A stretch of DNA of 64,000 bases from a virus (taxonomy: Duplodnaviria; Caudoviricetes), in IMG/VR virus record IMGVR_UViG_3300021400_001346, positions 1-64,000 of that record; one strand, given 5' to 3'. Positions 3,179 through 59,574 of the stretch are shown piece after piece. How positions within the stretch are numbered: position 1 is the stretch's first letter; each line of letters opens with the position of its first letter. The position numbers were made by a program, and so were the translations under genes. The notes beneath the pieces were generated by a model, which was not told where the DNA came from, did no database searches, and worked only from the letters and a program-made list of their open reading frames with translations.

Positions 3179-4219
3179 ATGGAACGTAAACATTTTATAG
3201 TTATCTACACCATTTGCAAAAATGAAAGAGCTAATTTAACTAAGTGATTGAACAGTCACAGCGGAGCAGATTTAATTGTCTTCTGTGATAGCGGTTCAAC
3301 AGATGGCACTTATGAAATACTTTGTGGTCTTCATACTCTTGAGCCAAATAAATTCCATGTTATACAATATCAAGAGCTTCCAAACTATGATATGTTTTCT
3401 TTTAGCCATGCACGTAATCAAGCATTACATAAAGCAGAAGAATTAACCCCTCAATACAATGTTTATCATAAGCCTGTTATCTTCTGTTGTTGAGATATGG
3501 ACGAATTTATTCAAACCCGTCTTGCTATACCAGCTTATGACGTTTTAGACCAAGTATGGATTAATGATAACTCTGAACAAGTTCACATTACCTTTGAAGC
3601 AAATGGTAGTACAGGCGCAGTTGCTACAAAAGTTCATAACAATTTGCCATTTGAATGGCGTTATCCTGTTCATGAGGACTTATTCCTTTACAATCATCAT
3701 CATAGTAACTATGTTAACAATCGTGTCTTTTTACCAAATGAAATTTATTATTTACACGAACAAGATTTTACTTCGTCAAATCATCGATATGGGAAGCATT
3801 TAAGATACGCAGACAAAATAGAACCTTTAAATATACATACCTTGCGTTATTTAATGTGGGAAGACTTTTTAGATAAGGATGTAAGTGCCTGCTATAAACA
3901 TGCACTCTCTTTTATTTATCTTGCTTATTCGCAAAAAGACTCAGAGTTTTATTTAAGCTATGATATTATACAACAAGCTCTATGATATTTATATAATTGC
4001 AGTTATGGTAATGAGCAATTCGCATGACTGACACAGCTTTATAATATCAGCCGACCACCTTACAATCCTGCTCTCCGCTATATTCATAAACTTTATTATC
4101 AAGCACTCATGTCTCTTAATAAAACAGATGAAGCAGAAAAGGTATTACAAGAATATAAATCCATTACTTATACGCATCACTGGTTAGACGACCCATCTCT
4201 ATATGAAAGGAACGATTAA
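3179..4219 (+). CDS. GT2-family glycosyltransferase, paralog 2, 346 aa (TGA=Trp)
   Basis: MERKHFIVIYTICKNE, CDSGSTDG, FSHARN, DMDE, YPVHE; single frame to TAA 4217-4219. Confidence 0.85.
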
Positions 4220-7568: not shown

Positions 7569-7789
7569 ATGTGTACTTACCTCCGATTAAACAAAATGGC
7601 TAGTTTCCACCCTAATGAGGGACTTCATCTTGCGATGCGGAGATAAGGAAATCTTATCACTAGTTATAGATAATATAAAATATAAAAAGGGATTTGTCAA
7701 GAACAAATCCACTAGTTATTTTTATTGGCACGGGCTGTAGGACTCGAACCCACACCTACCGTTTTGGACACGGAATCTTTACGGTTTTG

Positions 7790-8355
7790 CTTACCACTAC
7801 GATTTTCATCGCCACTTCTGTTTGTGGTCTGGACTATATCTTTACCTTGCATTTCTGTTTAGGTAGAGGATTATCTAGTCTCTACGGGTGAACTTATCTT
7901 CCCTCGGTGTTACCAGTTAAGGATTCACCGATATCATCCTCTCCACTATTATCGTTTCCAATAATAGGCTCCATGAGATCAAATGCATTTTTATAAGGTT
8001 GTAATGTTGTATAACCAATCGAACTAGAATATTTATTAGAAAATTCTACAGGAACGATATAAACATCTTCAGTTTCAATATCTACTCCAACAAAGAAATC
8101 AATTACAGAGCCATCATATCTAAAAATTTTATATTGACCTTGATTATGACTAATTTTACGAACAGGCAATTGTTTAGCTTTATTTAAAATTTTAATTTGT
8201 ATTCTAACTAAAACTGGCCCTTTGATTGCAATACAATCAATTTTAGTATTTTCTAATATTGGTACGTATAAATCTCATTCTCTTTTTAACATTTGTTTTT
8301 CAAAAATATTGTATCCTAATTTTCCTTTTGCTATTGTATCCATTTTATCTCCTTA
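7790..8355 (-). mobile_element. Group I intron in tRNA anticodon (after U34), 566 nt
   Basis: Core motifs on minus strand: ATCGGTGAA, CGTAGAGACTA, AAGATATAGTCC; P1 GTCTT/GAGAT with U.G at splice site; terminal G at 7790. Confidence 0.85.
7894..8343 (-). CDS. Group I intron-encoded PD-(D/E)XK homing endonuclease (I-Ssp6803I-like), 149 aa (TGA=Trp)
   Basis: MDTIAKGKLG...KIDCIA...RIQIK...IDFFVGVD; aaggag RBS; one internal TGA; C-terminus overlaps intron core. Confidence 0.8.
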
Positions 8356-8390
8356 AAGACCGCTGTGCTGCCAATTACACTAAGCCCGCA

Positions 8391-8756
8391 TTATTTACGT
8401 CTCTTCACTGTTCTATGATAACCACCCTTGCGGCGCTTGGTGACGGCCGCCTTACGTTTATAAGGCACCCACTCCAAATTATAACCATGTGGCGCCATCG
8501 TATTCAGATGGTCAATTCAGTACTTCTCACGTTCATTGAGTTGACTGAGCGCGCAAAATTCCACCACGTCTCATCTAAAGCCGTGGCCGCCAGTTTTGTC
8601 CCAGTCGGCCTGTAGCGCCGCGTTAGGGTGCTTGCCGGAGTAAAGTGCCGAAAAGTGCTCTTTGCGGCGTTCAAAGACATTCTGGGATTGACCAACGTAA
8701 ACCTTATTATTATTTAGATTAGTAATTTTATAAATGCCGCTAGCAGGAAGCGTCAT
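8391..8756 (-). CDS. GIY-YIG endonuclease, 121 aa (TGA=Trp)
   Basis: GIYKITN...VYVGQS...R...H; LNEREKYW...GYN continues through two TGAs to TAA. Confidence 0.85.
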
Positions 8757-8758
8757 AA

Positions 8759-9049
8759 TTAATGATTAAGTTTAAGAACAACTATCCAAGCATCTGGTCT
8801 AGTTTCTTCGCCCTTTTTATTTACCTTGCCGGCTTTGAATTTTTTATCACAGCCAGCGAAACCAGCATCATTGCGGGCGTCATTAATACAAGCGTCAGCT
8901 TCTTCTTCACTTGAGAAGGTATAAGTTTCTTTGGTTTTAGTAACCCAATAGCTGCAAACTTCGTCTGGGTCACATTCTAAAGTACATTCAAATTTAGTTA
9001 GATTATCGCTACGAGCGTCAACATATTCTTTAATATCTGTGTATTTCAT
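8759..9049 (-). CDS. Hypothetical protein
   Basis: 96 aa ORF with aggag RBS and upstream sigma-A-like promoter. Confidence 0.7.
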   Translation of the reverse strand: MKYTDIKEYVDARSDNLTKFECTLECDPDEVCSYWVTKTKETYTFSSEEEADACINDARNDAGFAGCDKKFKAGKVNKKGEETRPDAWIVVLKLNH

Positions 9050-9196
9050 TTATATTATTCTCCTTATTGCTATTATTATATCTTATCACCAGCGGTTTGT
9101 CAATAAAATTTTTAAAGCCCAATTATTATAATTGTGTTTTTATGCAAAATCCGTTATATTAATTAAGTAGTTATTATAACTAACGGAGGATTCGTT

Positions 9197-17983: not shown

Positions 17984-18368
17984 TGGTGGACTAGCTGAGG
18001 ATCGAACTCAGGTCTTATAACACTTCCTTATAAAAATTACTTACAGCTTTAACGGAGCATAACCAGCATAAATAGTCTCCGTACTTCTTTATGCCGCCGC
18101 AACGAAATTTTTCACTTGCGTCTGCCGTTGCACACAGCCGCGGTACAGCCGATTTATGAAGGAGTCGACCTTGTCTCGGCGTCAAGGAACTCCTGAGCGG
18201 TTATCTATTAATTAATAGTTAAGAGCGAAAGCTCTACCTGCGCTTCTTCTAGTAGAAAAAGCATTTACTCTGACTTTGCTTTGTTTTGCATTTATTGCTT
18301 GTTGATAGTAAGTTATCAGCTTGCTGTATTTCATAAGCAATTATCATAATCGAAACCAATTCTAGCCC
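17984..18368 (-). ncRNA. ssrA: tmRNA; tag AKQSKVRVNAFSTRRSAGRAFALNY
   Basis: GGGCTAG/CTAGTCC-ACCA acceptor with G3.U70, 5' GGTTTCGA, T-arm GTTCGAT, ATAAAT-GCA resume site at 18289. Confidence 0.9.
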
Positions 18369-27011: not shown

Positions 27012-27090
27012 TGGTGGCGGAGCCTAGGAGTCGAACCTAGTATCTTCAGATTATGAGCCTGAAATGGTATATCCGTTCCACTCGCCCGCT
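27012..27090 (-). tRNA. tRNA-Met(CAT), possibly initiator-like
   Basis: Loop CTCATAA; 1-72 mismatch. Confidence 0.75.
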
Positions 27091-27308: not shown

Positions 27309-27383
27309 TGGCACCGGCTTAAGGACTCGAACCCTAATGAGCTGATTTGGAGTCAGCCATCCTGCCAATTGAATGAAGCCGAT
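27309..27383 (-). tRNA. tRNA-Trp(CCA), intron-less
   Basis: GCTGA-CTCCAAA-TCAGC, GCCA. Confidence 0.88.
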
Positions 27384-27704: not shown

Positions 27705-27778
27705 TGGCGGAGAAGGTCGGTTATGCTCCGGCGACGCCTCAGTGACAGTGAGGCAGTTTACTATTAGCCTACATCTCC
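27705..27778 (-). tRNA. tRNA-Asp(GTC), divergent T loop
   Basis: Loop CTGTCAC; T loop AGCATAA. Confidence 0.75.
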
Positions 27779-35711: not shown

Positions 35712-37400
35712 TTTCCGTCTAGCCCTGAGCAGCTGCTGAGCGCCGCGGAGTGGTAAGCCAAGTCCTGCTGCTGCCGGGAGTGAATGGCATGCCAATCGCT
35801 GCTTCTACCTAAGCCCACCCAACGTCGGGTCGGTCGGGGCAGACGGAAAAAGCCTAGTCAGTTTCGACTAGGCCAAACCCAAATAAAAAGGTCCCCTTGC
35901 AGGACCCGGTTCATAAAAAGATTGCGGCAACAATCTTACGTGGTATTGCCGTACCACGATTTACCGCTACATCTGCTGATGCTCACTTTCCGCGGCGAGA
36001 CGACCATTTCTATTTTACGCCACATGGTCGAGGAGTAGTTGGTCAATATTATTTTAGTTACTTGTTTGACTAAGCGCTTGCAACCATCGCGCTAAATCAG
36101 GGGTGCCCAATCCGCATCTGTTTTATTTTCTGTGGTACAGTCCCACGGACCATGCCGGTTTCTCTCCGGCGCCTCCGTGCCCAGGAGTCAGGGTGTCGTC
36201 AGCACATCGTTGGTCCTAGACGGTTGCGGCCGCCACAGACCATTGCCACCTGGATAGTTTTCAAGGCACTATCAATCGCCATCGGAGTTACCTTTGTCAG
36301 CGGCTCCTCAATATGACATATTCTTTCATTAGCGCTCTACCCTTACACGTCGGGTAATTAGCCGCGCTCCTCTACTACTTGCTGCGTGTCAGCTGCACCA
36401 CGTTTGGCCGAATCTCGGGACATACGTGTTACGTCTGTGCCTAACGGTAGATTACGCTCTACTGCACTGCACCGTGTTCTTCCCAGCCGAATTGGTCATG
36501 CCAATTTCTTACTCAACCTTAGTCCTGGTAGCCGAGATATACACGTCACGTTCGTGCGTCCGGCAAGTTATTGCTCTTGCTGCGCTAATTCTATACTTCA
36601 ATCGGAGTTGAACCGTCTATTCATCCTAGTCCCTTTGCTAGGCGCGCCTTTCCGCTCGGCCATTTATCATAGAATTCGGGAATTAATACTAATGTGGAGG
36701 TTGCCTCCACCCCGCATCGTCTGCGGATGCCTTAGTAGCCAATCGGAGTCGAACCGACATCTTCCTCTATCCGGTTTAGGGTGCTCTGTCCGCGGGTATT
36801 GCCCTTGAGCTATGGCACTGTATATGCTTTATAGTGCATTGGCTAGCACTTCGTTGACTTAGTGCAGTTTTGGTTGTTTAAAGGGGCGTTACTCCCTGCC
36901 AGCTAGTTTCTTGTCCACCCTCCGATCCTGTAAACCGAAGGGGCGGCGCACGACTGCCGCGTCGGAATGATTGGGGTCTATCCTACCCAGTGAGGTCTCG
37001 CTCACTTCGAGAGTCGCTTTGGCTAGATGCTATGCTCATCGTCCGGGTGTTTAGTCTCTTAAGCCCAACTACTTAACGGCTAGTTAACCGACAGCAGGCT
37101 CTTTCACGTTTTGACGTCTTAGTATTCACCCTGGTTACTGCTGCGTGGGTGTTTTGGGACCAGCCAAGGAGTTAAACCTCGGACTACCAGTCGTGCCGGC
37201 CATAGTTATCATGGGGAAGAGTTGCAGGTAATCTGCCTGCCTCTTGCTACGGGGAATTTAAGCCCGTGCTCGGCGATTTCTCTGAGGTACGTTGTCCCCG
37301 CCTTGCGGCTGCCGGTCATTGGGTTCCAACCCATGTAATAGGGTGCTCTCTTCTTTGTTTTTTAACGAGGGGTATACGCCGAGCAGGGAGATGTTCCTCA
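35712..37400 (-). ncRNA. Cluster of structured non-coding elements including tRNA-like pieces
   Basis: 1.7 kb GC-rich, no credible ORF, many hairpins, promoter at about 37421-37450. Confidence 0.55.
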
Positions 37401-44434: not shown

Positions 44435-45397
44435 CTACTTCTTATTCAACCCAATCTCCGTACACCCGTACCAGTCGATCCACCATCTTTCTCTTTCATT
44501 CAACAGTCTTCTATCATTCACCCTCTCAACTACTTCTCAGTAGAAATCTTCAATCAGATGGTCCTCATACAACTTCTCACCTCCACTACTCTCCACTCCT
44601 ATCATCTTTTTAGCGTGTTGGTACCATCTCTCCTTAATATTAACTGCCTGCCCAACATAGCAAACCCTAACATCATCTTTCAACACCAATCTATAAATGC
44701 CGCAACAACCGTCGGCTTCTTCTCTCTTCACCAATCGTTGCATGGCTGGCATTCAGACCTTTCTCCATTCGATGGCCGCCAATTCACTTTTCAAATCCCC
44801 GTACTCTTCCTCGATCGTCCTAATCAGTTTCACTAACTTCATGTCTCTCCCACTCACTTCAAGCGGCCAACCATTTTCGCCACCTTCTTCCTTTCAGCCG
44901 CGCAAGACCGCTAACCTATTCTCTGTCTGTAGCCTCTCCAATTCTTCCACCAGTCTTTGAACTTCTTCTTTGCGGCGACCCAACACGCTGTCGACTTGAG
45001 TCAATTCTTCCTTGGCATGCACCAAATCGGCCGCCACCTTCTCCATTTCAGCTTGGCGTTCATTGAGAGCCGCGAGTTGTTGTCCAGCATGGGCGCTCAA
45101 GTCTTCCTGTTGACCCTTCAGAATATTCGCCCTCTCTTCTCAATAATTCACCTGGTTTTGAAGTTCATCAATGCGGCCACATTTGGCTAATAGAGCCTCA
45201 TTTGACGCTGTTACCTTCTTTAACTCCTCAGCCGCCTTATCTCGTTCCTCAATAGCCTTAGTTAACTTAACTACCAATTGCCTAACTTCATCGGCATGGT
45301 CGTCACTTTTATCCTTCTTATATTTAATTAAAACGGTTGTAACAATTAACGCCGCGATTAATACCATCGCCACGCTTACGCATATTCCTATTACCAT
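44435..45397 (-). CDS. TM-anchored coiled-coil protein with C-terminal GIY-YIG domain, 320 aa (TGA=Trp)
   Basis: Three ORF-track pieces in one frame joined by TGA; GIYRL...YVGQAVNIKERW..H...LNERERWWI. Confidence 0.8.
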
Positions 45398-57512: not shown

Positions 57513-57722
57513 ATGGACGATAGTATCAAAGTATATTCTTTGCCAACATGCGGCATGTGTAAAATGTTAAAGCGCTCTTTAGACGCACACAACATTCCTT
57601 ACACCACATGCGAAGATATAGACATCATGGCTAAAATGAATATCAAAAGCGTACCCGTCTTAAGCGTCAACGGGACACTTTACAATTTTAAAGACGCACT
57701 TGACTGAGTTAATAGGAGATAG
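57513..57722 (+). CDS. nrdH: Glutaredoxin-like NrdH (TGA=Trp near C-terminus)
   Basis: CGMC, SVPVL; ends ...ALDWVNRR. Confidence 0.85.
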
Positions 57723-57726
57723 CATC

Positions 57727-59574
57727 ATGAAACCAGACACAACTGAAAACAAAATTGCATTTATGCAAAAGTACATGGTTGCCCAAAATGCGGCGACCGG
57801 TAGTGACGTTGACTCAAATGCCAACGTTGCTAATAAAAACATCGCAACCTTATTTGCCGAACTTCCTAAAAAAGACATTATTGCACTTAATCGTGAATTA
57901 ATGCGCATTAAACTTACAGAACGTTTTGGTAAAACTCTTGCCGAACAATATGAAAAAGATTTAGCACATCATATCATTTACAAACACGATGAAACATCAA
58001 TCTATCCATATTGTTGTTCAATTTCCCTTTATCCATTCTTACTTGATGGACTTACTAAAATTGGAGGCTCTTCAACTGCACCAAAGCACTTAGATTCCTT
58101 CTGCGGCGGCTTTATTAACTTAATGTTCTTAGTTGCTGGCCAATTTGCAGGAGCAACCGCCACACCTGAATTCCTCACCTACTTCGATCACTTCGCGCGT
58201 ATCGACTATGGTGAAGATTACATTAGCCATCTTGACGATGTAGTTGAACATTTAAAGAGCGGCAAAATTACTTTGCGTGAAAAGATTTATCATTACTTTG
58301 CTCAAGTAGTTTATACAATCAATCAACCTGCGGGCGCCCGTGGCTATCAAAGCCTTTTCTGGAACATCGCATACTTTGATAAAGACTACTTTGCCTCAAT
58401 TTTTGAAAACTTCTACTTCCTAGATGGCGATGCACCAAAATGGGAAACTACAAAAGAACTTCAAAAACTCTTTATGAAATGGTTTAACCAAGAACGTTTA
58501 AAGAGTGTTCTTACCTTCCCAGTTGAAACCGCTAATATGCACACAGTTGGCGGCAAATATTCTGATACAGAAATGGCAGACTTTTTTGCTCAAATGTGGG
58601 CAGAAGGTGCATCCTTCTTCATGTATCAAAGTGATAGTGTAGATTCACTTTCATCTTGTTGCAGACTTCGTAACGGCATTGAAGATAACACCTTCTCATA
58701 TACACTTGGCGCCGGCGGCATTGAAACTGGCTCTAAAGGTGTTATTACTCTCAACCTTAATCGTATTGTTCAAGATTGGTCTAAATCTACTTCCGACGAC
58801 TTAAAAGAATATTTAACTGTCATCGTAAAACGTGTTCATCAATACCTCGATGCCTTTAATGACATCATCTGGGATTATAAGCGCGCGGGATTATTAACTA
58901 TCTATAACGCCGGATTCATCGACCTTGACAAGCAATACCTTACTATTGGTATTAATGGTTTCGTTGAAGGTGCTGAATTCTTAGGCATCCCAATTAATCC
59001 AGACGACGCCGCTTACCAAGACTATGCTAAAGCCATTCTTGAAACAATTAAAGACCTCAACATCGCGGCACGTACTGAACACTGCAAATTCAATACAGAA
59101 TTCGTTCCTGCCGAATCATTAGGTGTTAAAAATGCAAAATGGGACCGCAAAGATGGCTATGAAGTTCCAAGAGATTGTTACAACTCTTATTTCTACATCG
59201 TTGAAGACCACGATATTGACCCAGTAATTAAATTCCGCTATCAAGGAATTAAGTTCACCGGATGCTGTGATGGCGGCAGTGCCTTACACAACAACCTCGA
59301 TGAACATCTCAGCGCGGCGCAATATAGACTTCTTATGGACATTGCTATCGCCGAAGGTTGTAACTACTTCACTTACAATGTCATGAATACCATCTGTAAT
59401 CATTGCGGTCACATTAGTAAGCATACCTTTGATAAGTGTCCAAAATGTGGTTCAACAGATGTAGATTATGCAACTCGTGTTATTGGATATTTAAAACGTA
59501 TTAGTTCATTTAGCGCGGCTCGTCAAGCAGAGGCCGATCGTAGAGCATATTTGGGGTTAAAAGAAGAAAAATAG
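57727..59574 (+). CDS. nrdD: Anaerobic ribonucleoside-triphosphate reductase
   Basis: IYKHD, YC, SCCRL, PAE, CNHC/CPKC, TRVIGY. Confidence 0.95.
   Translation: MKPDTTENKIAFMQKYMVAQNAATGSDVDSNANVANKNIATLFAELPKKDIIALNRELMRIKLTERFGKTLAEQYEKDLAHHIIYKHDETSIYPYCCSISLYPFLLDGLTKIGGSSTAPKHLDSFCGGFINLMFLVAGQFAGATATPEFLTYFDHFARIDYGEDYISHLDDVVEHLKSGKITLREKIYHYFAQVVYTINQPAGARGYQSLFWNIAYFDKDYFASIFENFYFLDGDAPKWETTKELQKLFMKWFNQERLKSVLTFPVETANMHTVGGKYSDTEMADFFAQMWAEGASFFMYQSDSVDSLSSCCRLRNGIEDNTFSYTLGAGGIETGSKGVITLNLNRIVQDWSKSTSDDLKEYLTVIVKRVHQYLDAFNDIIWDYKRAGLLTIYNAGFIDLDKQYLTIGINGFVEGAEFLGIPINPDDAAYQDYAKAILETIKDLNIAARTEHCKFNTEFVPAESLGVKNAKWDRKDGYEVPRDCYNSYFYIVEDHDIDPVIKFRYQGIKFTGCCDGGSALHNNLDEHLSAAQYRLLMDIAIAEGCNYFTYNVMNTICNHCGHISKHTFDKCPKCGSTDVDYATRVIGYLKRISSFSAARQAEADRRAYLGLKEEK

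Follow-up and report, generated by a model that had tools for sequence, protein, structure and literature searches.

A candidate phage opal-decoding tRNA gene interrupted in its anticodon by a mobile group I intron and carrying a second, CCA-looped arm

The phage genome considered here contains a split gene that is very probably the phage's own opal-decoding tRNA, with a tryptophan-like body marked by G73 and a weak 1-72 pair, and with a UCA anticodon. A mobile group I intron, whose P1 loop holds a PD-(D/E)XK endonuclease, splits the gene between U34 and C35. The window, that is, the whole stretch of DNA analysed, covers the initial 64 kb of a virus record that is 115,739 bp long and rated complete. 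The parts of the gene are as follows, in window coordinates.

8389-7726, minus strand: complete split tRNA gene, consisting of a 34-nt 5′ exon, a 566-nt intron and a 64-nt 3′ exon
8356-8389, minus strand: tRNA 5′ exon, with the acceptor strand, D arm, A26, 5′ strand of the anticodon stem, C32, U33 and U34
7790-8355, minus strand: group I intron, 566 nt, between U34 and C35, with its terminal G at 7790 (RF00028 match, covariation, empty-site allele)
7726-7789, minus strand: tRNA 3′ exon; on the anticodon side C35, A36, A37 and A38, then the 3′ strand of the anticodon stem; in the remainder a 6-nt spacer, the extra arm, AGGU, the T arm, the acceptor strand, G73 and CCA
7758-7774, minus strand: extra arm, with stem UCCGU/ACGGU (four pairs plus a U-U) and loop GUCCAAA at 7769-7763 (covariation, loop conservation)

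The spliced tRNA and the reading of UGA

The 5′ exon terminates in GCGGT-CTT and the 3′ exon opens with CAAA-ACCGT; the 3′-terminal CCA is encoded in the gene. At its default settings ARAGORN overlooks the unspliced gene, and the Rfam tRNA model recognizes only the 3′ part of the unspliced DNA (16.4 bits). When the exons are joined, ARAGORN calls a 98-nt tRNA with the anticodon tca. The joined molecule has a 7-bp acceptor stem, a D arm with GG, a 5-bp anticodon stem with a 7-nt loop containing U33, a T arm with TTCGA, a discriminator base and CCA. Its lowest-energy fold is a five-arm cloverleaf (−30.7 kcal/mol). The alignment of homologues is 95.9% paired, with changes on both sides in 20 of the 26 pairs and covariation in all five helices.

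The position of the splice junction comes from related loci. A protein-guided scan using the endonuclease found 5 viral contigs with a matching exon-intron-exon layout, and a scan with a degenerate pattern found 38 further loci, 12 of which are intronless. In intronless genes of related phage contigs, GGTCTT is followed without interruption by CAAAACCGT. The exons of one intronless locus, L018, are 100% identical to those of L004 and L028, in which the intron is 605 nt long, and this identity fixes the junction between U34 and C35 and the anticodon as UCA. With boundaries taken from the empty-site alleles, the exon ends in ...CUU before the intron, with U at −1, and the intron ends in ...AAG, with G as its last nucleotide. 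The joined-exon ARAGORN call and the empty-site alleles thus bear out the preliminary description, in which the UCA anticodon arises only upon removal of a group I intron at this point. An exact-match scan of viral contigs for the 5′ exon gave no matches. Among GenBank phage records, neither the split gene nor the five-arm tRNA had a relative of full length; the matches there were short only, some with the intron core and others with 3′ halves of tRNA-Trp.

The tRNA gene is the last in a small operon, and the GIY-YIG gene that precedes it stops 1 nt ahead of it. The neighbouring features, and the tRNA gene used for comparison, are as follows.

9075-9103, minus strand: promoter-like site with a perfect sigma-70 consensus (TTGACA, 17 nt, TATAAT; 12 of 12 matches; a consensus match only)
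8759-9049, minus strand: 96-aa ORF with no TGA, first gene of the operon, with no Pfam or PHROG family
8391-8756, minus strand: free-standing GIY-YIG endonuclease gene with two in-frame TGA codons (PF01541, 9.7e-11)
7690-7710, minus strand: terminator-like hairpin with a T run, 15 nt past the CCA
27309-27383, minus strand: ordinary tRNA-Trp(CCA), the comparison gene in the tRNA cluster (tRNA search)

The motif reported for the phage's early promoters is absent upstream of the 9103 promoter. A syntenic intronless locus, L098, retains the order 96-aa ORF, GIY-YIG gene, tRNA.

In this phage TGA stands for tryptophan, as had been supposed: codons 98 and 400 of the portal gene, both TGA, align with an invariant Trp in 20 of 20 full-length homologues. 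Coverage by open reading frames (greedy) rises from 0.728 under code 11 to 0.834 under code 4. In-frame TGA codons number 107 in the genome versus 339 TGG codons, and TGA occurs in 40 of 108 genes, including those for the portal and the tail fibre. The TGA codons are concentrated in structural and fibre genes and are rare in a long block of other genes.

Searches of the 115.7-kb genome with ARAGORN and Rfam found no other UCA tRNA. The other tRNA genes, 28 by ARAGORN and 3 more by Rfam, all lie at 17.9-27.9 kb and none has a UCA anticodon; the separate, intact tRNA-Trp(CCA) at 27309-27383 is present as first described. With no second UCA tRNA in the genome, the phage encodes no candidate for a UGA reader other than the split gene, again in agreement with the preliminary description. 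Neither a TrpRS gene nor a release factor gene was found in the phage genome. Since there is no TrpRS gene, charging of the tRNA(UCA) would have to fall to a host enzyme. Judged from the codon usage of the phage, the host would be a standard-code bacterium, since the long TGG-rich, TGA-free gene blocks argue against a host that reads UGA as Trp. Standard-code hosts are likewise found in the work of Borges et al., whose model is a delayed change of code (10.1101/2021.08.26.457843).

The intron, its endonuclease and its mobility

The elements of the intron are listed below; helices are given as pairs of strands.

7894-8343, minus strand: PD-(D/E)XK homing endonuclease ORF, 149 aa (PF11645, 45.5 bits against a cut-off of 26.1, 1e-11)
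8349-8354, minus strand: AAGGAG ribosome-binding site of the endonuclease ORF, 2 nt past the 5′ splice site
7967-7972, minus strand: probable internal guide sequence GGAGCC, the P1 3′ strand (invariant in all ORF-bearing introns, just before P2)
7947-7966, minus strand: P2 hairpin, 8 bp, with a GAAA loop (99% paired, four pairs changed on both sides)
7832-7942, minus strand: catalytic core (covariation in P3, P6, P7 and P8)
7942-7936 with 7871-7865, minus strand: P3 (both-side changes)
7931-7926 with 7909-7904, minus strand: P4 (window's subgroup only)
7903-7901 with 7888-7886, minus strand: P6 (both-side changes)
7880-7876 with 7836-7832, minus strand: P7 (both-side changes)
7864-7862 with 7846-7844, minus strand: P8 (both-side changes)
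7793-7828, minus strand: P9 (7828-7824 with 7797-7793), which encloses a GAAA-capped hairpin at 7811-7800

The group I core motifs that had been noticed in the intron are now seen as helices that are paired and covarying in 12 related introns. The fold drawn for these introns has 43 pairs, with 93.8% of cells paired; controls in which the fold was slid along the sequences are only 27-51% paired. Fourteen of the pairs have changed on both sides versus 7.7 ± 1.5 in shuffles, and none of 500 shuffles reaches 14. The covarying helices are P2, P3, P6, P7, P8 and the P9 hairpin, so that the P3/P7 pseudoknot is included. Within P9, three of the four pairs of the inner hairpin show both-side changes. 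P4 and P5 as drawn are paired in the window's subgroup only. The scan with group I models that had been recommended gave a divided answer: the Rfam model Intron_gpI (RF00028) matches 7990-7808 on the minus strand over its whole length with an E value of 1.4e-4, but the score of 26.7 bits is below the gathering score of 50. We attribute the low score to the ORF in the 5′ part and to a divergent P4-P6 region.

The probable guide sequence GGAGCC lies at the far end of the ORF, which places the endonuclease ORF in the P1 loop and its ribosome-binding site in the P1-loop region. In ORF-less introns, 341-360 nt long, which open with CGATTGGAGC, GGAGC is found 6 nt from the 5′ end. In the register that we infer, GGAGCC can supply the G of the P1 U-G pair, and P10 could form between C+1 of the 3′ exon and the G preceding GGAGCC; the best P1 pairing requires a bulged U or a C-A mismatch. 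In addition, GAGAU (8350-8346) could pair locally with exon GUCUU, a pairing that is weaker in relatives. The earlier claim that the ribosome-binding site overlaps P1 therefore needs to be divided. The site is in the P1-loop region and local pairing is possible, but the conserved P1 strand is probably GGAGCC at 7972-7967.

The endonuclease ORF spans the P1 loop, the guide sequence and P2-P5, and runs into P6. The profile match confirms its assignment to the I-Ssp6803I kind (PF11645), and the in-frame TGA that had been reported is found once, at codon 23 (8277-8275). The sole PDB match is 2OST (I-Ssp6803I), with an E value of 0.054; the residue there that aligns with the TGA is Trp, and the D of KIDCI and the QIK of the phage protein align with the D and QVK of the D...QxK motif of 2OST. 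Relatives have TGG, TAT or TTT at the position of the TGA.

Among the related tRNA(UCA) genes there are 19 distinct introns, all at one insertion site. Their ORFs encode a PD-(D/E)XK enzyme or an HNH enzyme, or are truncated or missing, and a C-terminal tail encoded by the ribozyme core is common to all. One exon sequence occurs with introns of 527, 609 and 633 nt. Given the absence of the intron from L018 and L098, and the swapped or decayed endonuclease genes on the same exons, the intron is, as far as such comparisons of sequence can tell, a selfish homing element and an optional passenger and not a conserved regulator or timer.

The choice of codon for Trp within the intron ORFs is distinctive. 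Trp is written as TGA at codon 23 in the window, at codon 4 in the L015 type and at codons 5 and 77 in the HNH type; L002 has the only intron ORF with TGG for Trp. About four of five independent Trp codons in intron ORFs are thus TGA, versus 24% genome-wide (P ~0.013). This bias agrees with the intron endonuclease family preferring TGA that was reported by Borges et al. (10.1101/2021.08.26.457843). Since TGA is favoured for Trp in intron ORFs, the endonuclease probably depends on the tRNA that its intron interrupts, and its completion would probably need a working spliced tRNA. The feedback on the endonuclease suggested in the preliminary description gains modest comparative support from these codons.

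It had further been suggested that splicing gates the code switch: slow or regulated splicing would delay the tRNA(UCA) and so time the expression of TGA-containing late genes. The idea has attractions, as no anticodon exists prior to splicing, TGA is enriched in structural and fibre genes and scarce in a long block of others, the tRNA lies downstream of a consensus host-type promoter, and a delayed code change was proposed by Borges et al. (10.1101/2021.08.26.457843). However, the exon-identical L018 and the syntenic L098 do without the intron, as do 12 of the 38 loci of the pattern scan, the endonuclease genes within the intron are swapped or decayed, and no regulatory element was found. Group I introns of phage genes are, moreover, generally regarded as neutral passengers (PMC3984707). 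An intron that is optional in relatives and follows the pattern of a homing element speaks against the gate, and we now think it unlikely.

The second arm and the identity of the tRNA

Between the anticodon and T stems of the spliced tRNA lie the 6-nt spacer, the extra hairpin and AGGU. The loop of the hairpin, GUCCAAA, copies the CCA anticodon loop of tRNA-Trp, and the extra arm together with everything 3′ of it matches the 3′ halves of real tRNA-Trp(CCA). In the stem, five of five pairs covary across 28 homologues. A class scan of phage tRNA(UCA) genes, in which only the UCA arm and the T loop were constrained, separated four-arm genes (about 17 distinct), Sec-like genes (13) and Trp-like genes (30 distinct). 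A UCCA loop in the extra arm, (C/G)UCCAAA, is found in all 30 Trp-like genes versus none of the 13 Sec-like genes. The spacers flanking the extra arm are about 3-7 nt before it and 3-5 nt after it; in Sec-like genes they are about 2 and 1. Ordinary four-arm phage tRNA(UCA) genes exist too, so opal decoding does not in general need the extra arm. An analogous decoy arm was also sought in TAG suppressors among the fetched loci, where the CUA tRNAs numbered one.

When bacterial genomes were searched for the five-arm pattern, most of the hits were true selC genes with UCCAA in the variable loop, which is, by a rough estimate, about what chance gives for this pattern. Five Trp-like genes were found in the bacterial scan, on short MAG contigs of Coriobacteriia, Oscillospiraceae, a Treponema bin and Bacilli. 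Being only five and on such contigs, they point to no firm host.

In bacteria, Trp identity resides in G73, the anticodon and the first (1-72) acceptor pair (review PMC9976931). G73 is at 7729 in the window and is found in 30 of 30 related genes of the Trp-like class, most of which have A1-U72. The Trp identity set of Bacillus is A1-U72, G2-C71, G3-C70, G4-C69 and G5-C68 (PMC9976931); the window copy has G1-U72, C2-G71, G3-C70, G4-C69 and G5-C68, and the complete acceptor set AGGGG...CCCCU is present in most relatives. The decoding arm has U34 C35 A36, not the C34 C35 A36 of Trp identity, and CCA is confined to the loop of the extra arm. Given these determinants of Trp identity in bacteria, our preferred reading is that the CCA arm would be a handle for the host TrpRS while the UCA arm decodes; we regard this as about evenly balanced between right and wrong. 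The fuller proposal, in which the CCA arm would be an internal anticodon decoy for the host TrpRS, an enzyme that normally needs C34, and the endonuclease would be translatable only after excision of its own intron, is more tentative, and we place it somewhat short of even. The second arm also affects a counter-test named in the preliminary description, namely a spliced product with a CCA anticodon: with a CCA loop in the second arm, such an outcome is ambiguous.

Alternatively, the CCA arm itself might decode. The product would then be a tRNA-Trp reading UGG, with the UCA arm and the intron as an insertion between the D and anticodon arms. ARAGORN, when introns are allowed, does call a tRNA-Trp(cca) with a 589-nt intron, and the CCA arm, 4-nt variable loop and T arm are collinear with the 3′ halves of real tRNA-Trp(CCA). 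However, this arrangement would place a 24-nt insert between positions 26 and 27 and break the stack of the D stem on the anticodon stem; a hairpin after position 43 is the normal layout of class II tRNAs. Furthermore, the phage already has a tRNA-Trp(CCA) and needs a UGA reader, and many such genes lie in locally TGA-recoded DNA. We consider decoding by the CCA arm quite improbable. The splice called by ARAGORN was itself rejected as a candidate: in L003-L006 the 5′ strand of the first arm cannot pair with the 3′ strand of the second, and intronless genes retain both complete arms.

Hardly more probable, and perhaps a shade less so, is that the gene is dead, with the intron or the tRNA defunct and a host factor reading UGA. 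The Rfam score under threshold, the weak P1, G1-U72 and the 4-bp extra arm of the window copy could be taken as signs of decay, but the core helices are all intact and covary among relatives, the exons fold like the rest of the family, and about 40 genes, the portal gene among them, need UGA to be read as Trp with no other phage-encoded reader. Finally, the label tRNA-SeC that ARAGORN gives to the joined exons reflects the UCA anticodon, long extra arm and G73, but a selenocysteine tRNA has a negligible chance of being correct: the molecule is a 7/5 acceptor/T structure with a 4-bp D stem and 8-nt loop instead of an 8/5 structure with a 6-bp D stem and 4-nt loop, the Sec-like genes of the class scan stand apart as a group with other spacers and no CCA loop, and the in-frame TGA codons of the portal and endonuclease genes align with Trp, in a genome where such codons number 107 over about 40 genes. 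On these three grounds (layout, separate class, TGA-Trp alignment), the label was rejected.

Proposed course of events and relation to known systems

For the opal-decoding tRNA(UCA), we propose the following course of events. The operon would be transcribed from the promoter at 9103, giving an RNA with the 96-aa ORF, the GIY-YIG gene and the tRNA. The ribozyme would then cut itself out and join the exons, and RNase P and 3′ trimming would yield the 98-nt five-arm tRNA. The host TrpRS would load Trp onto the spliced tRNA, which, once charged, would read the 107 in-frame UGA codons in about 40 phage genes, including those for the portal and tail fibre. The endonuclease would appear only once the spliced tRNA works, since UGA read-through is required; before then, the early UGA would halt ribosomes about 300 nt ahead of the ribozyme core that the ORF overlaps. 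The intron would spread by homing into empty tRNA(UCA) genes.

Group I introns are known in the anticodon loops of bacterial and plastid tRNAs, and the closest counterpart in insertion site among them is the intron of cyanobacterial and plastid tRNA-Leu(UAA). The classical tRNA intron types Leu.3Ug, Arg.5Ug, fMet.2Ug and Ile2.5Ug belong to subgroup IC3 (Williams 2020, 10.1101/2020.01.27.920355). The tRNA-Leu(UAA) intron (Leu.3Ug) occupies the same 3Ug position as the phage intron, after the third loop nucleotide (U34). As in the window, U stands at −1 and the intron ends in G, and the exons are able to pair into an anticodon stem around the intron. The window has the loop context CUU/.../CAAA, and tRNA-Leu has CUU/.../AAAA. 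Unlike the tRNA-Leu(UAA) intron, the window intron resides in a phage opal decoder and has an ORF in the P1 loop that reads into the core. According to a 2014 review, all group I introns known from phages at that time lay within protein-coding genes, although phage tRNA genes are many (PMC3984707), and our literature search found no later report of a group I intron in the tRNA gene of a phage.

The endonuclease I-Ssp6803I of the Synechocystis tRNA-fMet intron is of the same family (PF11645) and is likewise encoded in a group I intron of a tRNA anticodon loop. The window enzyme differs in being very distant in sequence, in having tRNA(UCA) and not tRNA-fMet as its presumed target, and in being encoded by a gene that holds a stop codon readable only by the interrupted tRNA.

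The phages described by Borges et al. from gut and rumen are also large and low in GC, read TGA as Trp mainly in structural genes, and combine a phage tRNA(UCA) with reliance on the host TrpRS (10.1101/2021.08.26.457843). Unlike for the window, that work mentions neither an intron in the suppressor tRNA nor a second arm. A suppressor tRNA was recovered there from only 35% of code-4 genomes, and the authors suspected non-canonical structures (10.1101/2021.08.26.457843). Suppressor tRNAs in recoded phages are already known, and what is new is the combination found here. Our literature search found no description of an intron-split phage suppressor tRNA or of a second anticodon-like arm within a tRNA.

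Class II tRNAs (Leu, Ser, bacterial Tyr and Sec) also have a fifth helix between the anticodon and T stems, and a 7/5 cloverleaf with a fifth helix is known to be accepted by the ribosome. Unlike these, the window tRNA has longer spacers, a 7-nt loop with UCCA(A), and features of Trp and not of Ser, Leu or Tyr. Mimics of anticodon arms have precedents in other settings. The operator of the E. coli thrS gene is such a mimic and is bound by the aminoacyl-tRNA synthetase. Another is the tRNA-like element of HIV-1 that acts with LysRS (PMC5113203). As in these, the hairpin in the phage tRNA lies outside the decoding position and copies the cognate anticodon loop, and by analogy a synthetase could read it. 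The thrS and HIV-1 mimics are located in an mRNA or a viral genome and serve regulation or packaging, whereas the mimic in the window is inside a tRNA and would serve the charging of that tRNA itself.

The finding helps to explain how phages switch a standard-code host to UGA as Trp. It sets a group I intron inside the tRNA gene of a phage, where the 2014 review knew of none (PMC3984707). An intron of 341-707 nt hides the tRNA gene from default finders and could account for part of the missing suppressor tRNAs. The five-arm design suggests a natural route by which a stop-codon-reading tRNA could be charged by an anticodon-dependent synthetase, which is relevant to engineered genetic codes. If the CCA decoy is real, it would be a new way to separate the identity of a tRNA from its decoding; and if the endonuclease does rely on the gene that its intron interrupts, the intron would be a selfish element that is translationally dependent on that gene, a dependence of parasite on host at the level of translation.

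RNA genes in and around the tRNA cluster

In the window, the following RNA features were recorded besides the split tRNA gene, the intron-containing gene for tRNA(UCA). The tmRNA and the ROOL RNA are positioned beside and inside the tRNA cluster.

17984-18368 (-), phage-borne tmRNA, 72 bits
23878-24455 (-), ROOL RNA, 215 bits
25882-25952 (-), tRNA with anticodon UAC (Val), Rfam match, not called by ARAGORN
27016-27089 (-), tRNA with anticodon CAU (Met-type), Rfam match, not called by ARAGORN
27708-27778 (-), tRNA with anticodon GUC (Asp), Rfam match, not called by ARAGORN
36734-36818 (-), weak tRNA-like match, 21.8 bits, under the cut-off

The last of these has a T arm and an oversized D region, lacks a normal anticodon loop, and lies antisense inside an ORF.

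Protein genes and their in-frame TGA codons

8391-8756 (-), GIY-YIG endonuclease gene, two in-frame TGAs
44435-45397 (-), GIY-YIG endonuclease gene, four in-frame TGAs
57700-59574 (+), anaerobic ribonucleotide reductase gene NrdD (1.6e-93), no TGA

The split tRNA gene begins 1 nt past the end of the first GIY-YIG gene, a placement similar to that of SegB in the T4 tRNA cluster. The neighbors of the TGA-free NrdD gene, downstream of the portal gene, are plus-strand genes that do contain TGA.

The UCCAA loop in bacterial selC genes

Among the bacterial genome contigs matched by the five-arm tRNA pattern (L136-L170), many genuine selC genes carry UCCAA in the variable-arm loop. They come from Caulobacteraceae, Verrucomicrobiales, Acidobacteriota, and others, and by a rough estimate their number is about the chance yield of the search pattern.

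The intron family and a possible origin of the split tRNA

Related loci on other contigs (L-numbers) include three introns of 341-360 nt without an ORF (L011, L012, and L034), inserted at the identical site between U34 and C35. With the window's intron they have two features in common, the guide sequence on the 5′ side and the P9 end on the 3′ side; their middle core differs and is larger. At one tRNA site, a single kind of intron encodes an endonuclease domain of either the HNH or the PD-(D/E)XK type (L019, L021, L038, and L042 versus L015, L016, and L035). Both versions are fused to a common C-terminal tail, whose coding sequence is the ribozyme core, and the intron ORFs of L016 and L022 are truncated. 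The comparison shows that, within one intron family, endonucleases have been swapped and have decayed.

In L003, an ordinary tRNA-Trp(CCA) (~3490-3570) directly follows the split gene, and its anticodon stem, ACGGU/ACCGU, is the same as that of the adjoining gene's UCA arm, the probable decoding arm. This adjacency and shared stem suggest that the split tRNA gene arose through duplication of a Trp tRNA.
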